IMG/VR virus record: IMGVR_UViG_3300025828_004167
Span: 8,805-72,804 of that record
Length of the DNA: 64,000 nt
Direction: 5' to 3' (one strand)
Source of the DNA: a virus
Positions 1 to 33,931 of the stretch are shown one piece after another. Both the position numbers and the translations under genes were made by a program. Positions within the stretch are counted from its first letter, which is position 1. Each line of letters starts with the position of its first letter. The notes under the pieces were generated by a model. That model ran no database searches and was not told the DNA's origin. It saw nothing but the letters and a program-made list of their open reading frames with translations.

Positions 1-847
1 TGTCAAACAGTCCCATGTCTGCGAGCACCCGGTTGGCGGCACAGTTCAATGCCACTCCTCCAGCATACACCAGATTACGTGATCCGTATCGGCTGGCTCT
101 CGTCCATAAATCAGCGAGTAGTTCCTCCGTGACTGCTTGTATACTGGCGGCTATGTCCATGACATCCGCGTTTGTCTCCCAGTCACTCAATCCCCTGTGT
201 AGATTCTTCTTGAGACTGAAAGGTGATTGATTGACAAATTCATCATAGATTTTCTGCTTGTACTTGGGTGTGCCATACGCGGCCATTCCCATCAGGATGT
301 ACTCCTCTTCCGCCGGTTTCAATCCACAACGATGTGTGAATGCCGAATAAAGTATTCCTATGCTGTGTGGATACTTGATTGTCTCTTTCCTATCGATCCA
401 TATCTTGTCTGCTGTGGATATAGACACGGTGTCCCACTCACCAATGGCATCCACTGTAAGTATTGTTGCTCCCTCGTCCTTGAACGGTGATGTGAAATAC
501 CCCGCCGCCGCGTGTGAGTCATGGTGCTTTACGTACTCGTCAATCTTTATGTCAAAGTGATCCAAGTGCCACTGTGGCATCTCGGTATAGCTCATGGCAA
601 GTCCATACTGTCCCGCGTAGAACTGCCTGGTCTTTTTCAACAATGGCTTCTCGTAGTACACCACCTTGTCGAAAGGTCCAAAGGTACGTGCCTCGTCCAC
701 TATCTTTTGGTTGAGGTAGTGGTCATTCTTGACCTTGCTGTATCTCTCCGCGTGTGCGGCCCACAGGATCTCTCCTATGCCTGAACTATAGTCAACCACT
801 GCCATGGCGGCATCATGATTCATGCAGTTAATTCCCAGTATTCTCAT
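1..847 (-). CDS. Carbamoyltransferase (NodU/CmcH/TobZ family), N-terminal part, runs off the window
   Basis: Absent from ORF track; translated by hand from ATG 847: MRILGINCMNHDAA...AERYSKVKND...HHDSHAAAGYFTSPF...TVDAIGE...LMGMAAYG...AGGVALNCAAN, the hallmark Kae1-like carbamoyltransferase motifs. Confidence 0.93.
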   Translation of the reverse strand, partial: MRILGINCMNHDAAMAVVDYSSGIGEILWAAHAERYSKVKNDHYLNQKIVDEARTFGPFDKVVYYEKPLLKKTRQFYAGQYGLAMSYTEMPQWHLDHFDIKIDEYVKHHDSHAAAGYFTSPFKDEGATILTVDAIGEWDTVSISTADKIWIDRKETIKYPHSIGILYSAFTHRCGLKPAEEEYILMGMAAYGTPKYKQKIYDEFVNQSPFSLKKNLHRGLSDWETNADVMDIAASIQAVTEELLADLWTRASRYGSRNLVYAGGVALNCAANRVLADMGLFD

Positions 848-995
848 CTTCCTCCTTGTGCCAACCTATGTCCTCTATGTTGTCACTGCTACACTTCGGA
901 CAGACGTACCATTCGTTTGCCGAATCGTCTTTGTCTAGTTCGTTAGCCACGCCCTTCCATTTACAATCGTAACAAAGAAAATTCCACCAGGTCAT
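828..995 (-). CDS. Small zinc-ribbon protein (55 aa)
   Basis: CYDC...CPKC; ATG 995 overlaps upstream TGA (ATGA coupling), preferred over ORF-track start 1040. Confidence 0.65.
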   Translation of the reverse strand: MTWWNFLCYDCKWKGVANELDKDDSANEWYVCPKCSSDNIEDIGWHKEEDENTGN

Positions 996-1555
996 GCTAT
1001 CCTCAAAACCTTTTTGGTTTTCTCCAAATATTTCTCCCACTGCTCCAGCGTGATGTCGTACTCGAAGTTCTGTGTGGTCTCGTTCTTTCTCAAAAGTTTG
1101 GCGCCATTCTTGATGTGGAACCGTTCCGCCATCTCCGTCAAGGGACTCAGCGTCACCAACCTGTCTATGTGATGTTCCCTCTTGAATTTCTTATATACTT
1201 CGTTGAGTATGTGTTTGCCACCACCCTTCTTTTTAGCCCATACTGTGTAGGCTATCGCTATCCTGCCCACCAGGCCGCCACGCAGTATGCTCTGGTTGTA
1301 GGCGTCATGTGACATCAACGCCATCTCCTCTACAGTGGCTGGCACATCATTAGTGAACGCTATACATATGATCGCGGCAGTGTCTCCCTCATCGTCTCGT
1401 AGTCCTAGTATGCGTTTGCCATTGCTCTTGCGGAACTCCACGCTCAGTTCTGGCCTCACTGGATCCTCCGTGACATCTATTTCTGTGAGATCCACCAATT
1501 CAAATCGCGGATTTCTTTTGAACAGATCTTTTAACTTCTGTTTTATCTTTTCCAT
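992..1555 (-). CDS. Hypothetical protein, GNAT-like fold
   Basis: 187 aa; YTVW..KKGGGKHIL and VTLSP..AERFH.KNG resemble acetyl-CoA-binding GNAT motifs. Confidence 0.5.
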   Translation of the reverse strand: MEKIKQKLKDLFKRNPRFELVDLTEIDVTEDPVRPELSVEFRKSNGKRILGLRDDEGDTAAIICIAFTNDVPATVEEMALMSHDAYNQSILRGGLVGRIAIAYTVWAKKKGGGKHILNEVYKKFKREHHIDRLVTLSPLTEMAERFHIKNGAKLLRKNETTQNFEYDITLEQWEKYLEKTKKVLRIA

Positions 1556-1558
1556 GTG

Positions 1559-1663
1559 CTATTTGTATATGAAAGGATCTTTTTTCTTAAGTTCTTTTAA
1601 TCTCTTCCTGTACCGAATCTCTTCTCTGATCTTGTTCCACATTCTCTTAAACCATCTGATCAT
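1559..1663 (-). CDS. 34-aa basic peptide MIRWFKRMWNKIREEIRYRKRLKELKKKDPFIYK
   Basis: Below ORF-track cut-off; strong AGGAGG RBS upstream, fills the gap between two operon genes. Confidence 0.75.
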   Translation of the reverse strand: MIRWFKRMWNKIREEIRYRKRLKELKKKDPFIYK

Positions 1664-2468
1664 TTTTTCCTCCTGTTATTTTTTCAAAAGTTGGTAACAT
1701 TAATTTTACAGCATCCGCATGCGCTTGGTCAAGTGGATGTGTGGTGCCACGTGGGTAGTCATTGAGCAGTGCCCATTGGTTGAAACCCATATAACGTTCT
1801 CCAAAAAAGAACCATTTGGTAAAATCTATCTCAGAATAGAGTGCTTTCATGAAGGGGTCCTGATCTTTGTGTGGTGTCAGTTCGTTATAGAAAAGGCTGT
1901 TATCTGCCAGTGTGAACATGAATGGTATTTTTTTCTTTTCCAATATGTTCTGCAACCATATGATAGATTTCCAACTGAGGTATATCTCGTGGTATTGGTT
2001 TGCCGCATATTTGTAAATGCTTTCGGCGAAATCCCTCACTCCAGTTTCACGGAAAAGTTCTTTCCTCACACGCCACTGTTCTTGTTGTGTCTCCGAACTA
2101 TGCATGGTCCTGAACGCCTCTTCGTTGCCTGCGTTTGTGTCCCATGGTGATATCGATGCCCATCTAGTATCTTCTAATACCTTGTGCCTGGGCATGGCCC
2201 AGTCGTACCTAGACAGAAAACTCCACATCACGACTACACAATCTATACGGTCATTGTTAGCAACAGCATTGAAAGTCCTTCTCGCTATAGCAGAATTACC
2301 TAATCCGCCAAAAGCGGAGCACAGATACACAGTATCATCGTCGTCCCTAGAAGTTTTGAATAACCTGTGTGCCCATGAGTTCTTTGATGGAGTCTTGCCG
2401 TCCTGATCGTCGCTGAGCTCGTTGCCCAATGTAAAACTGCATCCTCCCGCTATAAATTTCTTAGTCAT
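1647..2468 (-). CDS. SGNH/GDSL-like protein
   Basis: N-terminal GGCSFTLG, G.GN motif, C-terminal THP. Confidence 0.6.
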   Translation of the reverse strand: MTKKFIAGGCSFTLGNELSDDQDGKTPSKNSWAHRLFKTSRDDDDTVYLCSAFGGLGNSAIARRTFNAVANNDRIDCVVVMWSFLSRYDWAMPRHKVLEDTRWASISPWDTNAGNEEAFRTMHSSETQQEQWRVRKELFRETGVRDFAESIYKYAANQYHEIYLSWKSIIWLQNILEKKKIPFMFTLADNSLFYNELTPHKDQDPFMKALYSEIDFTKWFFFGERYMGFNQWALLNDYPRGTTHPLDQAHADAVKLMLPTFEKITGGKNDQMV

Positions 2469-3627
2469 ATATCTTCAACACTGTATTTAAAAGTGGGAAC
2501 ACCTCTCCAAAATTTTCCTTCCTGTACTGGTCCGTCTGTAGTATACGCTGTTTCCTCTGTTCTCTGATCTCGGCTGTGTCCCTGTCCGCGGCGTTCATGA
2601 AACGTATGCTGGGTTGATAATCTGTGAGCATGTGGTACCTGTCCGTCACTATGTCCTTGATCTGCCGTGGCAGTGTCTGTATGTTGAACACGTCTGGATC
2701 AAAACAGGTGTTCACATAGAAGAACTTGGGCTGATACTGTGCCACCCACAGGGCGATCTTAGCCCAGTTGAACACGTTGAATATCGAGACCGTTGAACAT
2801 ATCTGGAAGTCCATGTTCGCAGTCTTCATCTCCTTGAACTTCACAAGGTTGGCGCTGACCTCACGCCAGTTTGCCGGGTGCCTTTGGTACTCAAATGGTT
2901 CTCCCACGTCGTCTATGCTGAACGCTATTTCTACATGCTTGAAGTAACCCCATAGGTCGAATATGTCCTTGGGTGGTAACTGTGTGCCGTTGGTGTTGTA
3001 GTGTATGTCTATGTTCTTGGCGTAGCCCTTCTCCACACAGTACATCAAGATCTTGAAGTGATCTCGAATCATGAACGGCTCGCCTCCCGTGAACTCGAAG
3101 TACTCCACATGCTTGAGATCTTCCTTGAGGTCCTCGAAGAACTGTGGGTTACGTTTTGGCCATCCACCCTCACGCAGATTTTTCAGTGCCACAGGGTTCT
3201 TTCCGTAGTCCAGTTCCTCTTGTGCCCATTTGCTGGAACTCCAGGAACCGCATATCCTACACTTTAGATTGCAAACGTTGCCTAACTTAAAGTCAATGAA
3301 TTTCAACATTGGCTCGCTATTAGGTGTCCAGTCCGTCAAGCTCTTCTTCATCTTGTATATAGAGTTTTGTCTTTTACTCGTTTTTCCTGCGTCTTCTTCT
3401 TGCCAGCAACTCTGACAACCTACAGGACGTTCTCCTTTACGGAACTGCTCACGTAAATTTTGCATGTATCCAGTATCCTGTATTGATTTGAGGCTTTGTT
3501 TGTAAACTTTGACCTCTGGAACACTACCCTTGTAGAGACAGCAGGGAGATGCACCGCCGTTAACGTCTACTTCTAAGTGGGTCCATGGCAAGGGACAAAT
3601 GTTTGATTTTATATATTTGTCCACCAT
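2461..3627 (-). CDS. Radical SAM enzyme with N-terminal twitch/SPASM-like Cys domain
   Basis: CNLKCRIC, TGGEP, YNTNGT; N-terminal CPLPW..PCC..CQSC. Confidence 0.92.
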   Translation of the reverse strand: MVDKYIKSNICPLPWTHLEVDVNGGASPCCLYKGSVPEVKVYKQSLKSIQDTGYMQNLREQFRKGERPVGCQSCWQEEDAGKTSKRQNSIYKMKKSLTDWTPNSEPMLKFIDFKLGNVCNLKCRICGSWSSSKWAQEELDYGKNPVALKNLREGGWPKRNPQFFEDLKEDLKHVEYFEFTGGEPFMIRDHFKILMYCVEKGYAKNIDIHYNTNGTQLPPKDIFDLWGYFKHVEIAFSIDDVGEPFEYQRHPANWREVSANLVKFKEMKTANMDFQICSTVSIFNVFNWAKIALWVAQYQPKFFYVNTCFDPDVFNIQTLPRQIKDIVTDRYHMLTDYQPSIRFMNAADRDTAEIREQRKQRILQTDQYRKENFGEVFPLLNTVLKIYD

Positions 3628-4928
3628 TCTAGAATTTCCTTGTCTTTGGCTAATATTTTTTTAATGTCAGTTGCCCTCACCCGGTCAAGCCTTTCTACTG
3701 TTTCTTTTCCTGCTACCAACCCCTCTTTATACTTGTCATGGCCATATGTCTCCTCATATGTTGGTTTTTCCTTTAAATCTTTTAGAGCACTGAAAAAGTA
3801 AATGTGATTTTTAAGTCTTGACTTGTTCTTTTCTAAAAATTCATCCACGATTCTGTTGAGTATTTTACGTGGCAGGCACATCGGAGACCATATGTTAGTT
3901 GGATCAAAACCAAACACCCTTTTGGCCAGAAGATCAATGTCAAGCTCTTCAGCGGCGTCTAACATTTCCTGTAGACCTACCATACCCGGCATTGTCATTG
4001 TGAGATCCATCCTCAGGTCACGCCTTGTCTTTGTGAACTTCCTTGCGTACTTCATGTTCGCCACCCACTCTTGCCATTTCAATCCTGTACGCACATACTC
4101 ACCCACTTCGCCTGCACCGTCTATACTGGCAAGTATGCTCCAGTGTTTGAATTTACTCAGGATGTCATCGAACAGATTCATTCCAAAGAAATTGATCCTA
4201 CTCATATTGGAGTTGTACCTGATGCTGACACTGTCATGGTAGTCCAACTCAATTATCCTTTTCATCGACTCCCAATGTATTTTCCACATGAGTGGCTCTC
4301 CTCCACACCAGTAAATCTCTTTGATTGTCTTCGATTCTACAGCATCCTTGAACTCGTGTACAATGACTTTGTCATGGAAACTGTCTATTTCCGCCTTTAT
4401 GTCTTTCCGCATCCACATCTGCGAGGGCTTGTTTGGATCCCATTCGCCTGTATCTCTGTTCTCCGCCTCCCAACTAGAGCTTAACATGTCTCCACACATC
4501 CTACACTTGAAGTTGCAGAGGTTATTGAACCTGTAGTCCCAACTAGTTACTTTCATGTCAGTGTGTCCATCATCTCCTGTCTTTTCATAGGCTTCATCAA
4601 TCTGGGATTCAAACAACTTGTTGAAATGAGTCCTGTATGTTGCGACAGACAACAGTTTGCCATTACACACCTGGCACTGCGGTATCTCCTTGCCTTGCAT
4701 AAGATCTACCCTGACCTTCTTCATGTAATCGCTATTCCAATGTTCATCCAGTGTATCTGGAGAGAAAGGCTGTGACTTTTTGTTTAGGTCGATGTACTGG
4801 TTGAATGTTTTAGAATCCTCACGTGAACTGCAACACAGTCTACGCTCCATCTGTGGCGAAAGATATGTATGTGTCCATGGAGCCATACAAAAAGTTTTAT
4901 TGCCTTCGCTGGGTTTAATTCTCTTCAT
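3609..4928 (-). CDS. Radical SAM enzyme with N-terminal twitch/SPASM-like Cys domain
   Basis: CNFKCRMC, GGEP; N-terminal CMAPW..LCC..CQVC. Confidence 0.92.
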   Translation of the reverse strand: MKRIKPSEGNKTFCMAPWTHTYLSPQMERRLCCSSREDSKTFNQYIDLNKKSQPFSPDTLDEHWNSDYMKKVRVDLMQGKEIPQCQVCNGKLLSVATYRTHFNKLFESQIDEAYEKTGDDGHTDMKVTSWDYRFNNLCNFKCRMCGDMLSSSWEAENRDTGEWDPNKPSQMWMRKDIKAEIDSFHDKVIVHEFKDAVESKTIKEIYWCGGEPLMWKIHWESMKRIIELDYHDSVSIRYNSNMSRINFFGMNLFDDILSKFKHWSILASIDGAGEVGEYVRTGLKWQEWVANMKYARKFTKTRRDLRMDLTMTMPGMVGLQEMLDAAEELDIDLLAKRVFGFDPTNIWSPMCLPRKILNRIVDEFLEKNKSRLKNHIYFFSALKDLKEKPTYEETYGHDKYKEGLVAGKETVERLDRVRATDIKKILAKDKEILEWWTNI

Positions 4929-6198
4929 ACAACTCCATCAGTTCTGGGAACACTTCTAACATATTTTCATCTCTAATCGAGTCAAGTTTTTTCATTGTAT
5001 CCTTAAACTGCTGTATATCCTTGCTATTATCACGTCTCATCATGTAATCCATTCCTGACTCGTACCCCTTAGTTGCTCTAGTGAGATGATCTAACGGACG
5101 TAACCATTCTAAATGTTTTTCATATTTCTCTTTTACTTTCTGCTTGTAAGATTCCGGCAACAGGTCTATCCTCTGCGCATATGGAAACTGTAAAAGATTG
5201 AAGTTAAAGTCCTGTGGTTTCAAAAGACCTTGGTCTACCCAATTTCTGTGGAAATCTGGTATGTGTAGTGCATTAATCAGACCCACTGTTGAACTAATGT
5301 AGAAATCAACTTGTGGACATACCTCTAACATCCTTTTCCTGTTTGCTACCACATCCTCCCAAACAGTACCTTTACGCATCAGTTCTCCTCTTTTGCCTTC
5401 GGCATCTAAACTAGCACCAATCGACACTGAATCAAACTTGTTCCATAATTCAAGAACATCTATATCCTTATATTTGGTCTTTGTGAAATTGGTGTTGTAT
5501 ATCAGTCTTACATGGTACATCTTGCGCCTATCCAATTCTTTGAGTATCCTGTAGTGTTCCTCCATGATGATCGGTTCGCCGCCAGCAAAATAAAACTGCT
5601 CTACATGATCAAACTGTTCCAGCATCTGGGTCCAGATGTCGTCACTACTTCTGCCCACCCTCATAATCTTTGCATGATTAGGCGGAGCGCCTGTAAGTTT
5701 CTTGTGATCCTCGTACCAGTTAGAACTGAACCATGTGCCACAACTCCTACACGCAAGATTACAGAGATTGCTGAACCTGATGTCCCAGTACTTGATCATG
5801 AAGTCGGCCGTGCCGTCTGGTTGTGTGTTGTCCACCATGCCTATGTTGTGTCCGAAATGCTTGTTAGAACTCAATCTCAGACTGAAGAATCCCGACTTCT
5901 CCTGATCATAGCATTTTGTACAGTGTTTGCTGGGTTTGTTTGCCAGCATGTTATTCCTGATGCCTTTCATCTCGTTGTTGTTGAAAACTTCCGCCATTGA
6001 ATTCTGGTTGAGGTCACCCACTGGATACTTGTCCAACGCGAAACAGCAAGGATACGCCCTGCCGTCTGGAAAGGCGTGTATATGCAACCATGGCATCATA
6101 CAGAAAGTGTCGCTGTCTATCAACAGTTCTTTCTGTCGATCAGTCATGTCCTTGATTTTTAATTTCTCGGGCTCCTTGGCCCCGTAATCATATGCCAC
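4915..6198 (-). CDS. Radical SAM enzyme with N-terminal twitch/SPASM-like Cys domain
   Basis: CNLACRSC, AGGEP, YNTN; N-terminal CMMPW..PCC..CTKC. Confidence 0.92.
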   Translation of the reverse strand: MAYDYGAKEPEKLKIKDMTDRQKELLIDSDTFCMMPWLHIHAFPDGRAYPCCFALDKYPVGDLNQNSMAEVFNNNEMKGIRNNMLANKPSKHCTKCYDQEKSGFFSLRLSSNKHFGHNIGMVDNTQPDGTADFMIKYWDIRFSNLCNLACRSCGTWFSSNWYEDHKKLTGAPPNHAKIMRVGRSSDDIWTQMLEQFDHVEQFYFAGGEPIIMEEHYRILKELDRRKMYHVRLIYNTNFTKTKYKDIDVLELWNKFDSVSIGASLDAEGKRGELMRKGTVWEDVVANRKRMLEVCPQVDFYISSTVGLINALHIPDFHRNWVDQGLLKPQDFNFNLLQFPYAQRIDLLPESYKQKVKEKYEKHLEWLRPLDHLTRATKGYESGMDYMMRRDNSKDIQQFKDTMKKLDSIRDENMLEVFPELMELYEEN

Positions 6199-7543
6199 GA
6201 TACCATTCTCCTATGATCGGGAAAGTCTTTTCAAAATTTTTTCCTCTTCTTTTATCATATTGCACAAAGTAATTTTTGAACCATTTAACCACTTTGTCTC
6301 TATCCTTAATTTGATTAGATTCATTCTTAAGATACTCTATCAGTCTTTCTACTTGTTCCACCTCCATGGCATGAAGCAAGTGTGAATTTCTATTTTGCGA
6401 AAGCCAGTTAGTCAGCTCATCTGCAAATCTTTGTCTCAATTCATGTGGAAGTATCAAACAACTTTGAAAATTTGGAAACCTCAGAATATTTAAAGTGAAT
6501 GTGACCGCATCACTACTGTTGGCTTTTTGTTTTATTTCCAAACACCAATCTAAGTAGTCCACTAAACCTTCAAGAGACAATGCGCCAATTGTACACATAG
6601 AATGCATTGAGCTGAAAGACTTTGATTCAGCAATCTTGTTGAAATTTTTGACCCACATATTCCAATTCAATCCATCCCTGATGTACTCTGCTTTCTCTCC
6701 CATTGATTCGTTACTGCTATAAATGTGAAGTCCTCGGATAGTCTTTGCCTTTTGTATCAATTTTTCTATGAGTGATTCTTTACTATTTAAATTGGTGTTG
6801 ATTGCGAAATAGGAAACGTTCGAATCACCCAACGCCATGAGGTCCAACAACTTCCATGTGTGTTTGCTCATTAAAGGTTCGCCCCCTGTGAGTCTTAGAT
6901 GCGTTAGTGTGCGTTTTAGATCTGACTCCCACCATTTGAAGAAGGCCTTTACGTAAGGATTATTGTCCTCATCAAACCTACTAGCGTTGTCATGAGGATG
7001 GCCGTAATGATCATGACCGTTTGGTCCTATGTCTGTATAACCTTTGTTAGTTTTGATGTCCTTTGCCCAAGTGGTGGAAAATGCGGGGTTACAATAACTA
7101 CAAGCAAAATTACAAGTTCTGTCAAAGCTCAATTCCAAGTATCTAAGATCAAAGTCATCCTCCGGATCAGATTCAAATGCTTTTTGTAACTCGTCGTCTG
7201 TGTACAACACAGACTTGTAAACCCTATCGCTTATTTTGTCTGCGTTGAGGTTTTCAACACGCCAGCAATAATCACAACCGTTACACTGGATTCCTTTCTG
7301 CATCTCTGCACGTTCCTTTTTCTTTTGCGGGGTGTTGCTCAGCAGTTTTGGATTTTGTAACACTGCTTCAGCGTCTACCTGGTGTGGCAATGGATGGTGA
7401 CACGCCGTTGTCTGTCCTGTATTCAACCAAACCGTGGCGTAATACCATTTGGCTCCACAGAAGGAATTGCTTTTTGTGTCTAGCACTCTTTCTTTATACT
7501 GAGAAAAACTTTCTCCAGGCAATAAATGTTGATCACTACTCAT
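6188..7543 (-). CDS. Radical SAM enzyme, N-terminal C-x-A-K-W / C-H-H subtype
   Basis: CNFACSYC, TGGEP, NTN; N-terminal CGAKW..ACHHP..CDYCW. Confidence 0.92.
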   Translation of the reverse strand: MSSDQHLLPGESFSQYKERVLDTKSNSFCGAKWYYATVWLNTGQTTACHHPLPHQVDAEAVLQNPKLLSNTPQKKKERAEMQKGIQCNGCDYCWRVENLNADKISDRVYKSVLYTDDELQKAFESDPEDDFDLRYLELSFDRTCNFACSYCNPAFSTTWAKDIKTNKGYTDIGPNGHDHYGHPHDNASRFDEDNNPYVKAFFKWWESDLKRTLTHLRLTGGEPLMSKHTWKLLDLMALGDSNVSYFAINTNLNSKESLIEKLIQKAKTIRGLHIYSSNESMGEKAEYIRDGLNWNMWVKNFNKIAESKSFSSMHSMCTIGALSLEGLVDYLDWCLEIKQKANSSDAVTFTLNILRFPNFQSCLILPHELRQRFADELTNWLSQNRNSHLLHAMEVEQVERLIEYLKNESNQIKDRDKVVKWFKNYFVQYDKRRGKNFEKTFPIIGEWYRGI

Positions 7544-8171: not shown

Positions 8172-8183
8172 TGTTGTGTGCTA

Positions 8184-8193
8184 TATTTAAATA
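8184..8193. promoter_or_regulatory. Palindromic TATTTAAATA, overlapping divergent late-type TAAATA elements
   Basis: Perfect palindrome in the 33-nt gap between divergent genes; TAAATA lies 11-12 nt from each ATG. Confidence 0.55.
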
Positions 8194-26397: not shown

Positions 26398-26962
26398 TGT
26401 TCCAGAATTCCTTTTTCTTTTTACCATGCACCAGAAGATGCACACGTTCTTGATCTGAATTGTTCTCAACATAGTGCTCGTAGTGTATGTTTAAAACCAA
26501 CGGCATTCCGGGCACATAATCTACCTGTTTATTGTTTAAAACGAATCTGTTACCTTCGGGATAACTCAGACAGATGTTTAAAGGTTCTAACCAGTTGCGT
26601 TCTGGCACATCTATGTGCTTTGTGATATAACCGTTTGGTTTGATCACAAGGAATCTTATGTCATCTATCCTAGCGTATGGCAAACTCTTTACCCACTCTA
26701 TTGTGCGTGGACAACGTTCGCCAACATCAGTTACACCTGGCTTTTGTTTTTTGCGATCATACTCCCAATGGCTGTTTGTCTTGTCTGAAGCGAATCCATA
26801 AAGGGTCACGGCACACCAATCCTTGTGTCCGTCCTCTGGCCTGTGTATGACTAGCCTATCCTTGATCAGTTCGTATTCCGTCAAAATTTGTTTGACCGGG
26901 ACATCGAAGTCCATCTGCACGTATTCCACACTGCTGTTTCTATCAAATTTTTGAGTGTTCAT
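26378..26962 (-). CDS. Aspartyl/asparaginyl beta-hydroxylase-like protein
   Basis: KPNGYITKHID...HYVENNSDQERVHL; paralog of 20760..21413. Confidence 0.75.
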   Translation of the reverse strand: MNTQKFDRNSSVEYVQMDFDVPVKQILTEYELIKDRLVIHRPEDGHKDWCAVTLYGFASDKTNSHWEYDRKKQKPGVTDVGERCPRTIEWVKSLPYARIDDIRFLVIKPNGYITKHIDVPERNWLEPLNICLSYPEGNRFVLNNKQVDYVPGMPLVLNIHYEHYVENNSDQERVHLLVHGKKKKEFWNNVHAWR

Positions 26963-27506
26963 GATGATCCTTGTGGTTCCCTTCAAATGGTGCAACCAAA
27001 TTGATGAGGAATCTGTTTGCAGGACCCTTGGCATCATGTCCGTAAAAATTCAGTATACCAAAACCTACATATGAAAGAATGTATAACATTAGGTTAATTA
27101 TAACTGCATTTACGCCAAAAAGCAATGTTGTTATTATCCAGTGTGCGGCGAAAATAAGTTTGCCGTACCTGTGGAAAAACATCACTCTTGGATTTTTTAT
27201 TAGATCGTCAATATATTTTCTTGGTATTTGTTTTACCTTCCATAAACTGAAGAGAATCACATGCCAAGGATGATTCCTAGGACTGTGTGGGTCCTTGTCT
27301 GTGTCTGCATAAGCGTGGTGTATCCTATGAACACCTGCCCAGGTCAATGCACTCCTACCACCGCATAACAATCCAAGATATAGAAGTACGATTTCTGCCA
27401 ATGGACTGGCTTTGTAATCACTGTGTGAGAAGTATCTGTGGTATCCGTAGGTTATTCCAACTGCGGCCACAAGCCAATAAATCATGTATCCATATAATAA
27501 TATCAT
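26943..27506 (-). CDS. Membrane fatty-acid (delta-9-type) desaturase, compact
   Basis: Three His boxes HRYFSH, HRIHH..D...DPHSP, HKDHH; hydrophobic segments. Confidence 0.88.
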   Translation of the reverse strand: MILLYGYMIYWLVAAVGITYGYHRYFSHSDYKASPLAEIVLLYLGLLCGGRSALTWAGVHRIHHAYADTDKDPHSPRNHPWHVILFSLWKVKQIPRKYIDDLIKNPRVMFFHRYGKLIFAAHWIITTLLFGVNAVIINLMLYILSYVGFGILNFYGHDAKGPANRFLINLVAPFEGNHKDHHEHSKI

Positions 27507-27539: not shown

Positions 27540-27950
27540 TTACGATCCTACAAATCCTTTATTATTATTTGTTGTAATCATAGGTTGACCTGGTACATCA
27601 TAATGGTACTGTTCCATTTCAGACCAATTTCTTAAATCTTCACCTTCTTCAACACCACATTTTTCTCTACAAGGACGAGGTGCATTATTAGGATCATCAA
27701 ACATAATATCCCAAAATGCTTTCCATTCTTTAGAGTGAGTAATTTCTTTAATATCTTTTACCTTATCAAGATGTAAATGTTCACTATATAATGCTTCGTG
27801 TTCTTTTGTTAATGGTTTTTTAGATTGAAATGCTTTGCTATCGCACCAACAACAAGGTAACAAAAATCCTAAAGCACTATGACCCATAGTAACTCTATCC
27901 CCCACAACACATTTAGGTACTATCTTATCTATTTTCTTTTGTTTGGACAT
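27540..27950 (-). CDS. Stand-alone SPASM/twitch-like Fe-S protein
   Basis: PKC...LPCCWCD...PCREKC, matching the C-terminal domain of 9684..10691. Confidence 0.65.
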   Translation of the reverse strand: MSKQKKIDKIVPKCVVGDRVTMGHSALGFLLPCCWCDSKAFQSKKPLTKEHEALYSEHLHLDKVKDIKEITHSKEWKAFWDIMFDDPNNAPRPCREKCGVEEGEDLRNWSEMEQYHYDVPGQPMITTNNNKGFVGS

Positions 27951-28587
27951 AATTCTCTTTATTTTTAGGCACACCTGCTTCCATATAATGAAACCTAGAT
28001 GACTTTTTAAGTAACAATTTAATTTTTTTATCTTTACAAAATTTTTTTGCGTCTTCTATTTGACGTTCATTAAAAGAAAATATTATAAATTGCCACGCTA
28101 CATTAAAACCTAATTCTTTTAATTTTATCATAGTATCAAATAAAAATTCTGAGTCTTGGTTATGACGGTATATATGACTAACATCTGGAAAACCATCTAG
28201 TCCTATTTTCCAATATATTCTTTCAGGATATATTTCACTTATTTTTTTATACCAATCAAACTTTTTATTTTTAACGGTTGCGGCTGTGTGTATTGATAGA
28301 TAATTTATTTTATGTTCTTTGGCAATTTCTATAAATTTTGCTAGATTAGGATTAAAAATAGGATCAGATATTTGACCACATAAACATAAATGTTTAAAAT
28401 GTTTACATAGTTTTGTCCATTGAGAGATTGAAGTATCGTAACCAGGTATAGGTTTACCTGCAAATCTATTCGTTTGCCTAGAACAAGCAATACATTCTAA
28501 AGTACACTTATTACTAATATCTAAATTTACGCTAGGTCTACTAATAAATCTATTATATAATTGTTTATAATTTTGTGAATGACTCAT
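27925..28587 (-). CDS. Short radical SAM enzyme (core domain only)
   Basis: CTLECIAC, CGQISDP, IGLDG, WQFIIFSFNE. Confidence 0.85.
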   Translation of the reverse strand: MSHSQNYKQLYNRFISRPSVNLDISNKCTLECIACSRQTNRFAGKPIPGYDTSISQWTKLCKHFKHLCLCGQISDPIFNPNLAKFIEIAKEHKINYLSIHTAATVKNKKFDWYKKISEIYPERIYWKIGLDGFPDVSHIYRHNQDSEFLFDTMIKLKELGFNVAWQFIIFSFNERQIEDAKKFCKDKKIKLLLKKSSRFHYMEAGVPKNKENYVQTKENR

Positions 28588-29275
28588 AATCTTCCCAGTC
28601 ATGTGGTTTATTTGTGGCATGGGTAAAGTGCACCATTTTGATGTCTGGATGAAATTCACCACCCAAATAAACGTAGTCGTTGCCCGTGACCTTGTGGTAC
28701 AACTGACTGGTCTTGACCTTCCATTTATTTAAATCAAAATTTTTCACACCAATATCCTCTTTGGCGCACCATCTAGCGACCCAACTGTCAGGCACCGTGA
28801 TCAATTCCAGTTCCTCATTGACGTTGTCTTCAACGAAGTACTGCTCCCCATTCACCGGTCCCTTTGCTATGCCCCTCTTGATGTAGTAGCTCTGCCAGAA
28901 GTCTGGGTCTGACATGAACTTGTCATAGATATACCTGCAGTCCTTGGGATAGTACTTGAAGAACCCTCCATTTATCTTGTAGCGTTTCTTTTCTGTGTCT
29001 CTCCACCATCCCGGTATCGAAACAAACTGACCTTTCTTTATGGGATACTCAAAAAGTTCTTTATAGTTGTTGACCAAAAGCACGTCAATGTCCATTACAA
29101 CTATGGGTTCGTCAATGTCTAAAGACATACCATACATTTTATTCCATTGCAGTAATACACCTTCTTTTATTGGCTTTCGTATCCATATAAATTCATACTC
29201 CGGCAATTTTTCTTCCAAGTATTTCTCGTACTCTGGACCGTACCTGTCACCTATGCGCACTGCTACAATTTTCAT
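28565..29275 (-). CDS. Glycosyltransferase-like protein (GT8-like)
   Basis: IGDRYGPEY, WNK, MDID, NGGF, GEQ, MVHF. Confidence 0.7.
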   Translation of the reverse strand: MKIVAVRIGDRYGPEYEKYLEEKLPEYEFIWIRKPIKEGVLLQWNKMYGMSLDIDEPIVVMDIDVLLVNNYKELFEYPIKKGQFVSIPGWWRDTEKKRYKINGGFFKYYPKDCRYIYDKFMSDPDFWQSYYIKRGIAKGPVNGEQYFVEDNVNEELELITVPDSWVARWCAKEDIGVKNFDLNKWKVKTSQLYHKVTGNDYVYLGGEFHPDIKMVHFTHATNKPHDWEDYESFTKL

Positions 29276-29997
29276 CGCCATTTTATGACCTCATCTAATG
29301 TTGGCTTCGCCACCCAGCTCTTGTGATTGAATCTGTCATAGTCTCCATAGCCTATGCCCATGACGAACGCCAAACCAGATCTCAGTGTGATGTCATTGTG
29401 TATCGCAGGCTCATAGAAATAACATTTACAGAAAGAAACATCTAATCCCTGTTCCACAGCCAACATCGTTGTGACCATCGCGTTCATGCCCGCCTGCTGA
29501 TTGAATTGATCCTTATGGATTTTTTCAACCTTGTCAAAAATTTGTTGTAGTTTTCCGCTTTCCCAGTACTTGCCCTGTTTCTGAGATTTCCTCATTTTCT
29601 GTGTGGCCGGATAGTACGCCAGGAGATATGGAGCCGTGACCTGGTTGTTGAAGTGCCAACTGTCGTCCTTGATGTACTGCTTGGTCTTGTCTCCGTAATG
29701 ATAGGCCAACCAGTCATCATATCTCGTTTCCAACTCCTTGGCCATCTCCAGTGTCATGTTGCTCCATCTATTGTGATCATTCTTGTGTTTTCCACACACT
29801 GTGCTCATGGCCAATTTCTTCTTCTGCGCAGAATGTTCAGGACCATACACATCTATCTCGTAGTGCCAAAAATTGTTCTTGTGTGGTGTCAGCTCTTTTG
29901 CTTTTTCCAGTATTTGCTGTATCAAGGCAACATCGGGTATCCTGTCCTGTTTGAAGAAAGAAATGTTCCTCCTCTTTTTCAGCAGATCTTCTATCAT
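29272..29997 (-). CDS. Nitroreductase-family flavoprotein
   Basis: LLKKRRNISFF...P...AP...AVEQGLDVSF...MGIGY. Confidence 0.7.
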   Translation of the reverse strand: MIEDLLKKRRNISFFKQDRIPDVALIQQILEKAKELTPHKNNFWHYEIDVYGPEHSAQKKKLAMSTVCGKHKNDHNRWSNMTLEMAKELETRYDDWLAYHYGDKTKQYIKDDSWHFNNQVTAPYLLAYYPATQKMRKSQKQGKYWESGKLQQIFDKVEKIHKDQFNQQAGMNAMVTTMLAVEQGLDVSFCKCYFYEPAIHNDITLRSGLAFVMGIGYGDYDRFNHKSWVAKPTLDEVIKWR

Positions 29998-30650
29998 ATC
30001 TTCGTTCCTATTATCATGAATCTTTTGTATTTGCCGAAATCTTTCTCATAGAACTTGATGTTCCTCAATTTCGACACGTACTGATTCGCGAAATCCTCCA
30101 CCGTGTCCACACAATTGATGTGTTGTGTTATTTCCCTGTAGTTGTTGCTCTGCAACACGACCAATGTGTGTTCCTCTAATTTACTTATAGTGTCGTAGAT
30201 CATGGATTGATCAAGATGTTCACAGGATGTACATATAACAATGGAATTTTCAAACTTATCTATTTCTTTGATATCCTTTTCAACAAATTTAATGTATGTT
30301 AGGTAACCATTTTTCAAATTATCAGCATCAACTTTCTGCCATAGTTTTTTAGCCACAGTTTTGGCTTGTGGATCAAAATCTACACAATCTATGTGACCTA
30401 TCTTTTTCAGTGTCAATTTTTTTACCAACATGTGTGCCAACAGTCCATACCAACTGCCTAAAATAGAAACACTGATATTTTTATCCAACGTCTTGCATTT
30501 GAAATGGTGAGGATATTCATTTAATTTTTCAATCAGCCAGTCTTTACTAGCATACTGATTTGTGCTGAGACTATCAATGACGTCAATTATTCTGTCTGGA
30601 CATTTCTCTAACAGTCTCTTTACCGTGTCTAGTGTGTCCCTATCAAACAT
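29994..30650 (-). CDS. SAM-dependent methyltransferase-like protein
   Basis: ILGSWYG, CVDFD, CTSCEH, LQSNNY, RFMIIG. Confidence 0.65.
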   Translation of the reverse strand: MFDRDTLDTVKRLLEKCPDRIIDVIDSLSTNQYASKDWLIEKLNEYPHHFKCKTLDKNISVSILGSWYGLLAHMLVKKLTLKKIGHIDCVDFDPQAKTVAKKLWQKVDADNLKNGYLTYIKFVEKDIKEIDKFENSIVICTSCEHLDQSMIYDTISKLEEHTLVVLQSNNYREITQHINCVDTVEDFANQYVSKLRNIKFYEKDFGKYKRFMIIGTKI

Positions 30651-31218
30651 ATTTTTGATTGTGCAACAGTATTGTGTTGTGTTCCACTCCCTCCTGCCAG
30701 CTGGATATCTGATCTCCTATGAAATAGTTGTATTTGACGTCTTCGTTGTAGATGTATCTGTCTATACCAGAGTACAATCTCACATATAGATCTCTGTGTT
30801 TCATGAACTTTTCAAACACGTGCCGTTGATCGCTCCAACGCATTATCGAAGAGTTCACCAGCGTGTTCTGTGTCACACGGAATTTCAAGGGCGTCTTCAA
30901 AGATTCCTGTTTCCATGCACTGCTGTTGACCAAGGTCAACCCTTCGAAATCACTCGCTAAGAAATCAATGTTATCATTTATGGCTATGTCTAAATCAAAG
31001 AACAAGCACTGTCCCGTGAACTGTAGTAGGGATAACTTATGGAACACACCACGCAGTTCGGGGTGCGTGACTGGAATATCATACTCCTTCTCTGGTCTAT
31101 CTGTGAGACATCTAAATGTGTGATCTAATGTGAGATGTTCTGCGACAGAGTTTTTTAACTTTTTATCAAAGTCTCTGGTGTATTTCGTTCCGACGTTAAC
31201 ACAGTATACATCAATCAT
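30643..31218 (-). CDS. Glycosyltransferase-like protein
   Basis: VGTKY, CLTD, HKL, FFDLD, NSSIM. Confidence 0.72.
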   Translation of the reverse strand: MIDVYCVNVGTKYTRDFDKKLKNSVAEHLTLDHTFRCLTDRPEKEYDIPVTHPELRGVFHKLSLLQFTGQCLFFDLDIAINDNIDFLASDFEGLTLVNSSAWKQESLKTPLKFRVTQNTLVNSSIMRWSDQRHVFEKFMKHRDLYVRLYSGIDRYIYNEDVKYNYFIGDQISSWQEGVEHNTILLHNQKYV

Positions 31219-31681
31219 CAAAGTTATTGTAGGCCACCAACAGCTCGAGCGGTGTCTTTGCTGATCTTAGTTGAGATTTCTTTTCCTTGTCGGTAGACCC
31301 CTTCACTTTTTCTGTTTCAAATATTTCCACCTTGGTGGTGAACAACATTTCCTTACACTGTGCGTCGTTTGGATCAAAGTTCAGTATGCACTTGACGAAG
31401 TCCTCCACAGATACACGTTGTTTGATATCTGTTTTTGACTTTATGCCAGCGTCCACTATGTCGCTCAGTTGCTGTGCGTATCTCCTGTTCCGGGCGATCG
31501 TGGCCTCCGCTATCTTGTCCGTGCTGTATTCCGACACGAGGTCCTTGAAGTCTTGGTTGTTGTAATCAACCGGGAGATAATGATTTATCGCCCGCTTGCC
31601 GTCCTCATAGATCACCTCGACTGTGTTGTTTTCTGAATTTGCGAAATACGCCTCTATTATTTTTCCACTGAATATTGCCAT
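31211..31681 (-). CDS. Hypothetical protein, first gene of GT cassette 2
   Basis: 156 aa with AAAGGA RBS. Confidence 0.7.
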   Translation of the reverse strand: MAIFSGKIIEAYFANSENNTVEVIYEDGKRAINHYLPVDYNNQDFKDLVSEYSTDKIAEATIARNRRYAQQLSDIVDAGIKSKTDIKQRVSVEDFVKCILNFDPNDAQCKEMLFTTKVEIFETEKVKGSTDKEKKSQLRSAKTPLELLVAYNNFDD

Positions 31682-31704: not shown

Positions 31705-31733
31705 ATTGTAGCAGAACAACATCAAAAAGTCAA
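31705..31733 (-). promoter_or_regulatory. Sigma70-type promoter TTGACT-17-TACAAT with extended -10 TG
   Basis: -35 at 31728-31733, -10 at 31705-31710. Confidence 0.75.
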
Positions 31734-32666
31734 TTATGATTTCAGTATCTTGAATGTGTAGGTGTTTACAGTTGTGGGTGTTCCGTCTGGGAATTCCTGT
31801 GCCCGGTAGTCGTTGGAATTGACGAATCTGGTCTGGTAATTTCCACTTCCGCCAGTGAGCTGTGTGTTCACTATGGCTGTGCCCCTGGCCGTACCACTTC
31901 CGTCTATGTTGTATGAGATCTGGTATCCTGTCGAGGAGTTAACCACTTGATCTTTGATGTATTCCTGTAGCAGTACACCGATCTCCGCGCCCGAATACTG
32001 TTTGAGATTGTTAGACGCATCTATGTACACGGGAGGATTGTAGGTGGGTAACACCCCATCGATGACATGTAGGTAATAGTTGGTTATGGTCTGTGGCTGG
32101 TCCTGTGGCTCGCTTATATCAGCGGCCGAATACGCCGAGGTGTCTGCCCTGGTGTCAGTGAATATCGGTGTCGATGATACCAGTGTCGCTCCTGTAACAG
32201 AAGTAGATGTCGAAACGAAATATGTTCCTGCCTGGGCACTCGTTGTATCGCCCAATGACATTTGATTTATGGTTGGATACACGAATGTATCTATGAAATC
32301 CTGTTCGGTCATGGCCTGTACCTGTGTGCCATTCCAGTAGATTGGGAAGGTCTTGCCCGTATCTGTGGTGGTTATAGATGCTGATCCTGTGACCTGTGTG
32401 ATACGTTGGAACGAAGTCGTGACCACGCTGGGTTCATCTGTTGTTGCTTCAGACGGATAACCTCCACTTGCCGACAATCCCGCGCCTGCCTGTAGCCTAG
32501 TGTCGTCGATTGATGTTAGATTTCCCCCCGAACCAGACACTGTCAGTGTCCTTGAAGGTGATAATGAATAGTAATATGCGCCGAGGGTGTATATGTTGGT
32601 CAGATCACTGCTCTTCATCTGCTGAAGTTGTGCGCCGTTGTATATTAAAGGTGTTCTAACAGTCAT
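31734..32666 (-). CDS. Virion tail-associated structural protein
   Basis: 310 aa, S/T-rich, internal repeat (DDTRLQA/TDTRADT/VNTQLTG). Confidence 0.6.
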   Translation of the reverse strand: MTVRTPLIYNGAQLQQMKSSDLTNIYTLGAYYYSLSPSRTLTVSGSGGNLTSIDDTRLQAGAGLSASGGYPSEATTDEPSVVTTSFQRITQVTGSASITTTDTGKTFPIYWNGTQVQAMTEQDFIDTFVYPTINQMSLGDTTSAQAGTYFVSTSTSVTGATLVSSTPIFTDTRADTSAYSAADISEPQDQPQTITNYYLHVIDGVLPTYNPPVYIDASNNLKQYSGAEIGVLLQEYIKDQVVNSSTGYQISYNIDGSGTARGTAIVNTQLTGGSGNYQTRFVNSNDYRAQEFPDGTPTTVNTYTFKILKS

Positions 32667-32676
32667 ATGATTAGTT

Positions 32677-32705
32677 ATTATAAAACATTCCTAGGAACAT
32701 TTCAA
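32677..32705 (-). promoter_or_regulatory. Sigma70-type promoter TTGAAA-17-TATAAT
   Basis: -35 at 32700-32705, -10 at 32677-32682, 10 nt from ATG. Confidence 0.55.
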
Positions 32706-32713
32706 CCATAAAA

Positions 32714-33931
32714 TTACGCTCCTGCGCCGTATATGGTCTTTAGTACCGTTCCCGTACTGCTCAGGATTTGTAATGATGTGCTTGATGCGAACATGGTCGA
32801 TGTCACTGTGCCAGTGTCTCCAGTCGTTACCACTGTACCTGTGACGTTTGGTATGGTAATGGTCCTGTCCGCAGTTGGGTTGGCCACTGTGATCGTGGTT
32901 TCGAAAGCGTCATCTGATGATCCTTCGAAGATGATTGTACCACTGGTTGTGAGTTGTATGCCCGACGTTGTTACAGCACCTGTTAATGGTCCTGTGAAAG
33001 CGGTCGCGTTCACAGTGCCCGCCACATCCAGTTTGGTACTAGGAGTTACTGTGCCTATACCTACCCTAGACTCGGCTCCATCGATGGTCATCACCGTAGT
33101 GCTGGTTCCACCATCATTGACCTTGAACGTGATGTCTGTGTTCTGTGCCGTGTTTGACAATATCACACCGTTGCTGTCAACTGTGATAGAAAGGTCATTG
33201 TCAGCACCCACGGTAATACCTGAGTCATTGACAATACCCAGTGTGCCTGTTGTGGTGTCGTTGGCGTCTGATCTGAGGAACGATGCCGCCGCTATGCCGC
33301 CAAGTTTATCTGCGTCTGTGGCAGTACCGTTTAATTTGATTCCTGAAGGTGAAGTTGTGAATGTTATTCCCTTGTACACAGTTGGGAAACCTGTTATCGC
33401 TGTCTGTGGCGTAAACTCCGTGTCCGAAACTATGGCTATCAGCGTGCCATCACTGTACCATTTGGTTATGGGTTGACTAGCTGTGGTGGAATCTGTGACT
33501 GCTTCATACACGAAACCATTTAACGAACCTGTTGAAGTTGGTGGACCGACCAGCACACTCTGAGATCCGTCATAGTAGAACAGTTGTCCTACATCTGAAT
33601 CTATCCAGAGGTCTCCCTGTTGTATACCACTTGGTTGTGTGGATTGGTAGGGAATGTTACCCCCGGCAGGAACGAAAAGGTTCCCTGTGTAGACTTTCAA
33701 TCTGTCAACGTCACTGTCATACCAGAGTTGCCCTTGTACTGGTTTGGTCGGTGCCGAATCGTTGGCAAAATTTTCCAGTAGATGGAGGAAATTCTCCGCT
33801 ATCAGCTCTCCATAACCCGCATAACCCTTACCAATGAAACTGAGATCCGTCTGTGTGTTGACCACACCGTCCTGTACTATGTACTGGTTAGGTGAAGCGG
33901 CGCTGTTTGTCTTGTTTACTGTGTAAGCCAT
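32714..33931 (-). CDS. Tail fibre-like protein, paralog of 17306..18946
   Basis: Shared TDL..GKGYAG.GE..ENF..QGQLW.D..QGDLW.D, GTATD.D.LGG.A..FLRSD.ND.TTG, FKVNDGG blocks; different C-terminus. Confidence 0.75.
   Translation of the reverse strand: MAYTVNKTNSAASPNQYIVQDGVVNTQTDLSFIGKGYAGYGELIAENFLHLLENFANDSAPTKPVQGQLWYDSDVDRLKVYTGNLFVPAGGNIPYQSTQPSGIQQGDLWIDSDVGQLFYYDGSQSVLVGPPTSTGSLNGFVYEAVTDSTTASQPITKWYSDGTLIAIVSDTEFTPQTAITGFPTVYKGITFTTSPSGIKLNGTATDADKLGGIAAASFLRSDANDTTTGTLGIVNDSGITVGADNDLSITVDSNGVILSNTAQNTDITFKVNDGGTSTTVMTIDGAESRVGIGTVTPSTKLDVAGTVNATAFTGPLTGAVTTSGIQLTTSGTIIFEGSSDDAFETTITVANPTADRTITIPNVTGTVVTTGDTGTVTSTMFASSTSLQILSSTGTVLKTIYGAGA

Follow-up and report, generated by a model that had tools for sequence, protein, structure and literature searches.

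The window analysed here, 64,000 nucleotides covering positions 8,805 to 72,804 of the IMG/VR record IMGVR_UViG_3300025828_004167, comes from an uncultured jumbo myophage of the Rak2/Atu_ph07/XacN1 kind and carries an island in which two tail-fibre genes are each followed by a gene for a serine/threonine (S/T)-rich protein, a small gene, candidate glycosyltransferases (GTs) and a run of tailoring enzymes, including radical S-adenosylmethionine (SAM) proteins. The reading put forward here, held at about even confidence, is that these soluble enzymes glycosylate fibre or baseplate-distal virion proteins. In the proposed scheme, a dehydratase-like short-chain dehydrogenase/reductase (SDR), a DegT/DesI-like aminotransferase and a DesII-like radical SAM enzyme would make a nucleoside diphosphate-activated 6-deoxy-4-amino or 3-keto-4,6-dideoxy hexose. 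This sugar would be edited by a carbamoyltransferase, five N-twitch radical SAM enzymes and a B12-radical SAM enzyme, with hydroxylases and methyltransferases contributed by the module behind the first fibre. GT-A glycosyltransferases would attach it, in the cytoplasm and before assembly, to S/T-rich fibre or baseplate-distal proteins. Each S/T-rich protein, together with a small protein and a GT pair of its own, would form a cassette that can be exchanged, so that fibre tip and coat would change in concert. Such a role is suggested by the solubility of the enzymes, the conserved fibre-then-transferase order, a fusion protein in a cultured relative, cassette exchange, the case of phage XacN1, and the S/T-rich tail of a neighbouring 241-aa protein. 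The identity of the sugar, the order of the steps and, most of all, the acceptor are inferred from the observed enzyme families, folds, synteny, co-variation and fusion protein.

Both modules, like all features described below unless stated otherwise, lie on the minus strand. Module A begins with fibre paralog 1 (405 aa, 32714..33931), which matches phrog_15511, phrog_14394 and tail-fibre PHROG families, and module B with fibre paralog 2 (546 aa, 17306..18946), which is conserved through the lineage and is a full-length homolog of Atu_ph07 gp176 (E 1.5e-36). Residues 1-308 of fibre 1 and 1-307 of fibre 2 share 41.6% identity (E 4e-71), confirming the same-strand paralogs with a common N-terminal anchor that a first-pass annotation of this DNA had described. 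Its further claims of an S/T-rich gene of about 310 codons behind each fibre, with a small gene next, also hold. Module A has a 310-aa protein with 26.5% S+T (31734..32666) and a 156-aa protein (31211..31681), and module B a 318-aa fibre-associated protein with 24.8% S+T (16345..17301), a candidate acceptor or fibre tip, and a 110-aa protein (15979..16311), against an average of 14.1% S+T over all proteins. The module A S/T-rich protein has no Pfam, PHROG or NCBIfam match and the 156-aa protein no family match, and an Atlas look-up of 16345..17301 returned viral hypothetical clusters only. The 110-aa protein is a homolog of ORF354 of the Ralstonia phage RsoM2USA; its M6 is invariant, and the true start is probably codon 6. 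The layout of two parallel modules is thus real, but only the fibre anchors are homologous between them: hhalign finds the S/T-rich proteins (0.2%), the small proteins (0.1%) and the GT-like pairs (0.6%) of the two modules unrelated. The recurrence is therefore an analogy and not a duplication. Module B, running from fibre 2 leftwards to 5.2 kb past the window edge, is a conserved core, whereas module A (18957-31681) is an accessory insertion, a mosaic of oxygenases and methyltransferases, and to speak of two parallel cassettes is to overstate the case.

The conservation of module B was followed through relatives of fibre 2, of which IMG/VR holds 155; 80 of these loci, at 57-93% identity, were examined. 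Of the 57 loci that extend as far as the first radical SAM gene (11904..13274), 53 have all eight genes from fibre 2 to that gene in the same order, and in the other four only a 104-aa protein was undetected. All five extended records share the next stretch as well, with 2461..3627 and 1647..2468 leading on to the carbamoyltransferase, the SDR, a 430-aa paralog of 13264..14166 and an aminotransferase; 992..1555 was detected in four of the five.

Co-variation, which the first-pass annotation had proposed to look for between fibre type and cassette content, was measured as the Spearman correlation, across loci, of identity to the window. The S/T-rich protein 16345..17301, the 110-aa protein and the two GT8-like genes that follow show mutual correlations of 0.65-0.83; within this block, the GT8 pair correlates with 16345..17301 at rho 0.67-0.77 and with the 110-aa protein at rho 0.80-0.83. 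Between the 110-aa protein and GT8 pair on the one hand and the flanking fibre 2 and 13264..14166 on the other, rho is only 0.15-0.37, and the backbone genes on both sides of the block correlate with each other at 0.59-0.87. In addition, GT8 identity is bimodal, lying at 33-51% in 46 of 69 loci and at 59-85% in the remaining 23. The outcome of the proposed check is thus positive: the S/T-rich protein, small protein and GT8 pair are swapped as a unit, independently of the genes around them.

The glycosyltransferases named in the first-pass annotation are backed by predicted folds and by paralogy, but no island protein has a Pfam glycosyltransferase match at E ≤ 0.01. For the first of the two paralogous GT8-like proteins (15230..15982), a model made with an alignment built from related loci (predicted local distance difference test, pLDDT, 94.4) contains a GT-A domain nearest to GT8-type enzymes. 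Foldseek matches include GlyE, LgtC, alpha3GalT (alpha-1,3-GalT), UGGT, LARGE1 and glycogenin (E ~1e-6 to 2e-5; template modelling score 0.43-0.52), and further matches are viral GT8/GT-A proteins. The second protein (14443..15237) is assigned as a paralog of the first (hhalign 95.6%). The metal site of GT8-type enzymes consists of a DxD motif with a distal histidine; D94-x-D96 is invariant in the 15230..15982 family, the 14443..15237 family has E-x-D, and D96 and H241 are invariant across both. Searches of the pair gave no PF01501 match and no Pfam match at E ≤ 5 save a faint one to DUF5672 (0.031), and profiles of the GT candidates compared with PDB sequences returned nothing useful. Behind the pair lie the 104-aa protein (14145..14459), which has no family match and was found in 63 of the 80 loci at 23-72% identity, and a further GT-A-fold protein with an invariant D-G-D (13264..14166), to which the 430-aa protein beyond the left window edge is paralogous. 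The model of 13264..14166 (pLDDT 90.9) has an N-terminal GT-A domain with VIA Z-scores of 10.4 to B4GALNT1, 9.4 to WrtF and ~9 to SunS/ThuS; Z-scores of 8.9-9.1 are also obtained with IspD/IspDF nucleotidyltransferases. Members of its family were found at 63 loci in genomes of Roseobacter-group, Bdellovibrio-like and Photorhabdus bacteria, and in five of seven annotated contexts a GT1/GT4 or GT2 gene adjoins the bacterial homolog or stands one small gene off. In the Roseobacter-group loci L139, L136, L125 and L122, the homolog forms an operon with a GT1 gene and a 150-180-aa gene, flanked by large caspase-domain/Sel1-repeat proteins. In module A, the GT-A-like pair 30643..31221 and 28565..29281 are paralogs of each other (hhalign 86.5%, E 4.6e-6) with an invariant D-x-D; their nearest named Atlas clusters, PF03407/GT8 (score 0.95), are a lead only, and Pfam searches of 30643..31221 family members gave no match. 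GT-A-like genes accordingly stand beside virion genes at both sites, three right behind fibre 2 and its S/T-rich gene and two candidates behind the fibre 1 module.

A compact version of module B is found in cultured phage RsoM2USA (344 kb, MG752970), in which ORF347-358 keep the same order at 25-41% identity. Herein, ORF355 joins the fibre anchor (residues 5-95, 39% identity to fibre 1) to an S/T-rich domain (residues 101-345) homologous to 16345..17301 (hhalign 97.5%, E 8e-12), so that anchor and S/T-rich domain, separate genes in the window phage, form one polypeptide. It is followed by homologs of the 110-aa protein, of both GT8-like proteins, of 13264..14166 (ORF350, 41%) and of an N-twitch radical SAM protein (34%), by a second 13264..14166 paralog, and by a homolog of the module A gene 29994..30650 (ORF347, 29%); an SDR lies nearby. 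All ORFs of this cassette are annotated as hypothetical, and the cassette is not discussed in the available part of the genome report (PMC8504454). On the other side of fibre 1 lies the conserved 241-aa protein (33935..34660; phrog_11259, unknown function, 1e-75), whose structural role is suggested by position only. It is 52% identical to Atu_ph07 gp177 and 35% identical to XacN1 ORF329. Its C-terminal tail is S/T-rich and polymorphic: of the distinct C-termini recorded, most bear a tail of ~23 aa, three a poly-T variant and six none; the Atu_ph07 homolog is without it.

Beyond the transferases, module B continues with a radical SAM block (2461..13274). It comprises five N_Twi_rSAM genes (11904..13274, 6188..7543, 4915..6198, 3609..4928 and 2461..3627), a radical SAM/SPASM gene (9684..10715), and three genes to which no family could be assigned (11168..11911, 10675..11184 and 7536..8171). 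The five N-twitch proteins score 287-415 bits against NF033640 over model positions 1-398 (curated cut-off 170), share an invariant CX3CX2C motif (C146, C150, C153) together with C33, C52, C93 and C96, and are given a SPASM domain at the N-terminus by Pfam. No named reaction was found for NF033640, nor any family name more specific than 'radical SAM', and a literature search found no paper on N-terminal twitch radical SAM enzymes. Within the block, the B12-binding radical SAM gene (8205..9683, plus strand; Radical_SAM 6.5e-14, B12-binding 2e-5) is the sole plus-strand gene of the island; its matches to class-B methyltransferase models, PhpK-family ones among them, reach 1.6e-25 at best and stay below cut-off. 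Two further proteins, 1647..2468 and 992..1555, are conserved beside the carbamoyltransferase. The former is a paralog of 11168..11911 (E 2e-10), and homologs of the two give only weak DUF6071 and MCD-C matches. The carbamoyltransferase itself, of NodU/CmcH type (2..847; Carbam_trans_N 1.6e-35), is cut by the window edge; the full protein has 490 aa, a Carbam_trans_C match at 3.7e-55 and 29.5% identity to XacN1 ORF333 (E 1e-39). The 144-nt gap between this gene and 992..1555 holds an unlisted small open reading frame (ORF; ~828..1040, minus strand) with two CxxC pairs, zinc-ribbon-like in character.

The sugar genes lie in the first 8.8 kb of the contig, left of the window, where the rest of the carbamoyltransferase is accompanied by the SDR, the 430-aa GT-A paralog, the DesII-like radical SAM gene and the DegT aminotransferase. 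The SDR matches epimerase/dehydratase families at 3e-42 and a dTDP-glucose dehydratase model at 3.3e-28, below cut-off, and is two genes away from the DesII-like gene. The aminotransferase (DegT 3.6e-88) adjoins the latter and matches PLP_DesI at 3e-37 and PseC at 4.7e-57, all below cut-off. The DesII-like protein aligns over residues 15-384 with the solved DesII structure 8hzv (E 1.7e-67) and scores 317 bits (E 1.8e-94) against TIGR04426, the model for DesII, dTDP-4-amino-4,6-dideoxy-D-glucose ammonia-lyase. As 317 bits is below the equivalog cut-off of 450, the protein is put down as a close relative of DesII and not as a proven equivalog. Its gene is present in one of the five extended relatives, and no match was found in 50,697 phage records, nor by pattern in IMG/VR.

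Module A is of a different make. Its proximal enzymes (28565..31221) comprise the GT-A-like pair, a methyltransferase-like protein (29994..30650) and a nitroreductase-like protein (29272..29997), the last two labels being drawn from weak matches and motifs. They are followed by a split radical SAM/SPASM gene (27540..28662; Radical_SAM 6.4e-7), whose two pieces (27925..28662 and 27540..27974) correspond to the N-terminal and the C-terminal part of 9684..10715 and lie in frames that overlap by 50 nt; the split could be genuine or could stem from a frameshift or an assembly error. In the distal run (18957..27506), Pfam, NCBIfam and PHROG searches identify PF05118 hydroxylases at 20760, 25041 and 26378, a TauD protein at 24221, a methyltransferase at 21398, a CmoA-like protein at 22059 and a desaturase-like protein at 26943, while motifs read by eye mark a PP-loop protein at 22760 and HxD...H proteins at 18957, 19822, 20285 and 23731. 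According to a hydropathy scan, the desaturase-like protein (26943..27506) is the only cassette protein with membrane segments. On the minus strand of 21398..23734, the SGGSDS PP-loop protein, the CmoA-like carboxy-SAM synthase and the small methyltransferase are adjacent, and the three could together add and amidate a carboxymethyl group; PP-loop and CmoA-like homologs occur in only 3 of the 80 loci, and the methyltransferase is more widespread.

In the 80 loci, the interval between the two fibres holds a version of module A in 10, a reduced unit in 9, a 31734..32666 homolog alone in 2 and none of these in 52, and is not covered in 7. The 52 loci without module A carry a third fibre paralog in its place. 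In the reduced unit, homologs of 31734..32666 and 31211..31681 are followed, on the opposite strand, by two GT-A-like genes, two genes of unknown function and a radical SAM/SPASM gene. Overall, 31734..32666 homologs were found in 13 loci, 11 of which have the small-protein homolog alongside, and in 19 of the 80 a GT-A-like pair is located within the interval behind fibre 1 or next to it, a coupling of presence and absence. Between fibres 1 and 2, most relatives have the third fibre paralog and then a protein of ~484-521 aa (L021 6595..9580; L071 5964..9794; L065 6003..9797), to which L064, L065 and L071 add a 292-aa protein; none of the three is found in the window.

The long tailoring run seen by the first-pass annotation is confirmed for the radical SAM, oxygenase, methyl-transfer and carbamoyl-transfer families, but its SGNH and acyl-transfer calls have no supporting family match and go back to by-eye motifs and to the weak DUF6071 and MCD-C matches of homologs. 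Similarly, of the "about 30 enzymes" counted there, ~17 genes have significant family matches and the rest would need motif-only calls. As regards glycan building and tailoring, module B is supported by its GT-A folds and by the DesII-like, DegT, SDR and carbamoyltransferase genes, whereas the target of module A is less clear. The claimed link to the fibre proteins has gained indirect support from synteny, co-variation, the RsoM2USA fusion and the XacN1 glycoproteins.

Several points weigh against glycosylation of the virion. A glycan on any protein of this lineage has been shown neither here nor in print. The 80 loci may include many near-identical copies of single phage types, so that locus counts are not independent; moreover, linkage between neighbours alone, or a fibre tip and GTs matched to one host glycan, would give the same co-variation. 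Tail proteins in general are S/T-rich (18.8% in the giant protein behind the baseplate wedge, 20.6% in the gp6-like protein), and S/T composition is therefore weak evidence for an acceptor. Mass spectrometry of RsoM2USA virions covered ten abundant bands, in which the available part of the report lists the giant protein, ORF356 and ORF359 and not ORF355 (PMC8504454), and the glycoproteins of XacN1 are not named in the accessible text of its description (PMC5852040). Atu_ph07 and Phosso have no detectable GT relatives at the corresponding locus. Furthermore, GT8 and GT9 include transferases of the lipopolysaccharide (LPS) core, LgtC being among the fold matches, and published opinion leans towards the host surface, the authors of the pelagimyophage study favouring, in the part available, modification of the host O-chain (Zaragoza-Solas et al., 2020; PMC7029224) and the published view of cyanomyophage GT clusters likewise favouring a change of the host surface.

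This last point leads to the alternative that the enzymes remodel the glycan of the host surface by acting, at the cytoplasmic face, on LPS core, O-unit or capsule precursors. This would block superinfection or keep progeny off debris, and cassette and fibre tip would co-vary through being suited to one and the same host glycan. The alternative is considered unlikely, though far from negligible. It is the reading given, in the accessible text, for the pelagimyophage host recognition cluster (PMC7029224), and also for cyanomyophage GT clusters; it accounts equally well for the co-variation with the fibre tip, and the GT8 fold class includes LgtC. XacN1 has a GT9 enzyme and an HtrL_YibB-family protein, both families being linked to the LPS core. 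Nevertheless, Pfam and NCBIfam searches of the contig reveal no initiating phosphoglycosyl transferase, flippase, polymerase, ligase or Gtr-type protein, although the contig makes up ~21% of the genome, so that Gtr- or Wzx-Wzy-type genes could lie elsewhere. Only the desaturase-like protein has membrane segments, and the kin of this phage are lytic jumbo phages, seroconversion being typical of temperate ones. A host-directed role would not require the fusion with, and tight synteny to, a fibre protein over distant hosts, and XacN1 virions are reported to carry glycoproteins (PMC5852040, as far as its text is available). Somewhat less probable again is that there is no single target, module A being a hypervariable accessory island at an insertion-tolerant site between fibres, filled with 2-oxoglutarate oxygenases, methyltransferases and lipid- or tRNA-directed enzymes as in T4-like marine phages, and module B alone a coherent pathway. 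Of the 73 loci covering the interval, 52 do lack module A; its content differs among the 10 that have it, and nothing in it beyond the fibre anchor is homologous to module B. Its PF05118 proteins give weak OlsC and LpxO matches and stand beside the desaturase-like membrane protein, and its CmoA-like gene matches phrog_4752 'tRNA methyltransferase' (1e-63). Two features stand against this. In nine loci, the minimal unit once more combines two GT-A-like paralogs and a radical SAM/SPASM protein, encoded on the opposite strand, with an S/T-rich protein and a small one; in the window, all module A genes follow one another head to tail on the same strand, preceded by a single promoter-like site.

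Transfer of the groups to nucleic acid, as DNA hypermodification against restriction or as tRNA modification, is very improbable. Known phage GTs do glycosylate DNA, and Campylobacter phages with 11-12 radical SAM proteins are on record. The absence of nucleotide-modification genes asserted by the first-pass annotation stands in that no thymidylate-synthase-like hydroxymethylase, kinase or queuosine-pathway match was found in the window or contig, but it is qualified by the CmoA-like enzyme and the PP-loop motif, which belong to families that also act on nucleosides. PF00303 was found in none of five partial relatives, but these are fragments, 29-55% complete, and the absence carries little weight. 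The island also stands among late structural genes and not replication genes, and modification of nucleic acid offers no rationale for co-variation with the fibre tip. The lowest probability of all is given to a diffusible small molecule (aminoglycoside- or nucleoside-like) or the maturation of a ribosomally synthesized and post-translationally modified peptide (RiPP), unrelated to the virion. The set of DesI/DesII, B12-radical SAM, twitch radical SAM and carbamoyltransferase enzymes does resemble antibiotic sugar pathways, the same idea has been raised for a cyanophage, and the radical SAM proteins of Atu_ph07 resemble peptide maturases. However, neither a scaffold-forming enzyme nor an exporter nor a recognisable precursor peptide came to light; the intergenic gaps are too short for hidden precursors, save for the one zinc-ribbon-like ORF, and a small molecule would leave four to five GT-like proteins and the linkage to fibres unexplained.

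Sigma-70-like sites, identified by consensus match only, lie in short intergenic gaps at 32705-32677 (11/12), 31733-31705 (10/12) and 16331-16303 (10/12). The site at 31705..31733, ahead of the module A enzyme genes, reads TTGACT-17-TACAAT (10/12, with TG), and at the 16331 site a conserved ATG follows the -10 box at a distance of 7 nt. The promoters of the first-pass annotation are thus present as sites, but such sites are common (67 against 43.6 +/- 6.5 in shuffled sequence). Matches to the T4 late-promoter motif TATAAATA are confined to 50805 and 57095, a number within chance expectation, and promoters give no reading of early or late cassette timing. In four metatranscriptome runs, contigs identical to the window cover fibre 2 and its S/T-rich gene (e.g., 17515-18934 and 16101-16705), and short pieces fall in enzyme genes (e.g., 14733-14956, 20743-21221, 27199-27544 and 29815-30181); DNA carry-over is possible, these contigs cannot rank genes, and stretches without coverage carry no information.

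The window is the final 64 kb of a 72.8-kb contig, which CheckV rates as 21% of its genome. Since related records of 100-197 kb are rated 29-55% complete, the genome is probably ~350 kb in size. The right part of the window holds T4-type baseplate and replication genes, namely a gp6-like wedge, gp25, a gp5-like hub, gp53, the gp55 late sigma factor and gp47/46. The nearest relatives of the gp6-like protein (35-42% identity), the sigma factor (43-46%) and the 241-aa protein (47-56%) belong to the jumbo myophages Atu_ph07, Phosso, PA5oct and GAP32; the DNA of positions 14000-34000 has no near match among phage records. Gene order runs from the wedge to a giant 4212-aa virion protein (34670..47308; phrog_10938 virion structural protein, 1159 bits; FG-GAP and CBM_5_12 repeats), then to the 241-aa protein and the fibre/enzyme island. 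The giant protein, directly behind the wedge, is the upstream landmark of the island and matches in position the giant proteins of Atu_ph07, Phosso, RsoM2USA and XacN1. At the other end, the island extends 5.2 kb left of window position 1 to its far border, a strand switch to DUF2201/VWA genes; gp14 is absent from the contig. Past this switch lies a DUF2201 metallopeptidase/VWA-like gene (371..1609 of the source contig, plus strand), and the relative locus L085 has a gene of like size at a like position. A SegE-type GIY-YIG homing endonuclease gene lies downstream of the gp46/47 genes (61467..61892, minus strand).

Taken at its widest, the analysis suggests a picture that is tentative and more doubtful than the central reading. 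Abundant ocean jumbo phages may carry on their fibre tips a glycan of carbamoylated deoxy-amino sugar that radical SAM enzymes have edited, the acceptor and its own GT pair being swapped as a plug-in cassette, with N-twitch radical SAM proteins performing sugar or glycoprotein chemistry that lacks a characterised precedent. If so, a single recombination event would reset receptor binding along with the chemistry of the surface. Should the fibres be the site of the glycan, then how these common marine phages recognise hosts, how stable their particles are and how grazers or immune systems recognise them would all depend on a chemistry that structure-based host-range prediction ignores. The lineage is abundant, with >6,600 metagenome homologs of one island radical SAM protein and 155 relatives of fibre 2 in IMG/VR. 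Fibre islands with GT and radical SAM genes were already known from marine T4-like myophages (PMC7029224), and virion glycoproteins have been proposed to be phage-made in XacN1 (PMC5852040) and reported in mycobacteriophages (cited in PMC12619734), as given in the available parts of these papers. New here are the split into conserved core and accessory module, the exchange of an acceptor-plus-GT cassette, the DesI/DesII-type branch and the cultured relatives, whose compact cassette makes the question testable.

Among the known systems closest to the island, RsoM2USA differs from the window phage in having one N-twitch radical SAM protein in place of five, and none of its compared ORFs matches the carbamoyltransferase, DesI-like or DesII-like proteins. 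XacN1 of Xanthomonas belongs to the same clade, and its locus likewise lies behind the gp6-like wedge and giant protein. It contains a weak GT2, a GT9, the 241-aa homolog (35%), an HtrL_YibB protein, the carbamoyltransferase (29.5%) and a PF11397 GT; unlike the window phage, it has GT9-, PF11397- and HtrL_YibB-type enzymes, and the proteins compared include no match to the radical SAM or fibre proteins of the window. At least two virion glycoproteins were detected in XacN1, which its authors propose to be made by phage GTs, and the phage is said to be without tail fibres, according to the portion of the paper available (PMC5852040). In Atu_ph07 and Phosso, the fibre-2 homolog is followed by three or four radical SAM genes; those of Atu_ph07 are of the SPASM, peptide-maturase type and give no BLAST match to those of the window. 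The hypothetical proteins beside the Atu_ph07 radical SAM genes were also considered as GT relatives and proved unrelated to the window GT families.

In pelagimyophages and cyanomyophages, the host recognition cluster is an island after a giant baseplate-associated protein that mixes fibre, GT and radical SAM cassettes and varies by cassette gain and loss, as far as the accessible text describes it (PMC7029224). In marine T4-like myophages, the cluster is bounded by the giant VrlC-like protein and the neck gene gp14. The window island resembles it in beginning after a giant protein and in having fibres, GTs and radical SAM proteins. It differs in lineage, no cyanophage or pelagiphage being among the listed or tallied matches of the gp6-like or 241-aa proteins, and in that one half of it is strictly conserved. 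In mycobacteriophages, phage GTs are reported to place O-glycans on C-terminal parts of virion subunits (Freeman et al., 2023, as cited in the part of PMC12619734 available). The polymorphic S/T-rich C-terminal tail of the 241-aa protein is a point of likeness, whereas the mycobacteriophages are siphophages of Gram-positive-like hosts with capsid and tail-tube subunits as targets. Virion glycosylation in that system reportedly employs two or so GTs, with no sugar-tailoring or radical SAM genes. Finally, virus-encoded nucleotide-sugar pathways and GT-A enzymes decorate the virus's own surface in PBCV-1, through the capsid GT A64R, and in Mimivirus, whose fibril glycans contain 4-amino-4,6-dideoxy sugars. 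These are eukaryotic viruses, and homology to the island described here is shown for the GT-A fold only (A64R fold match, Z 8.6).

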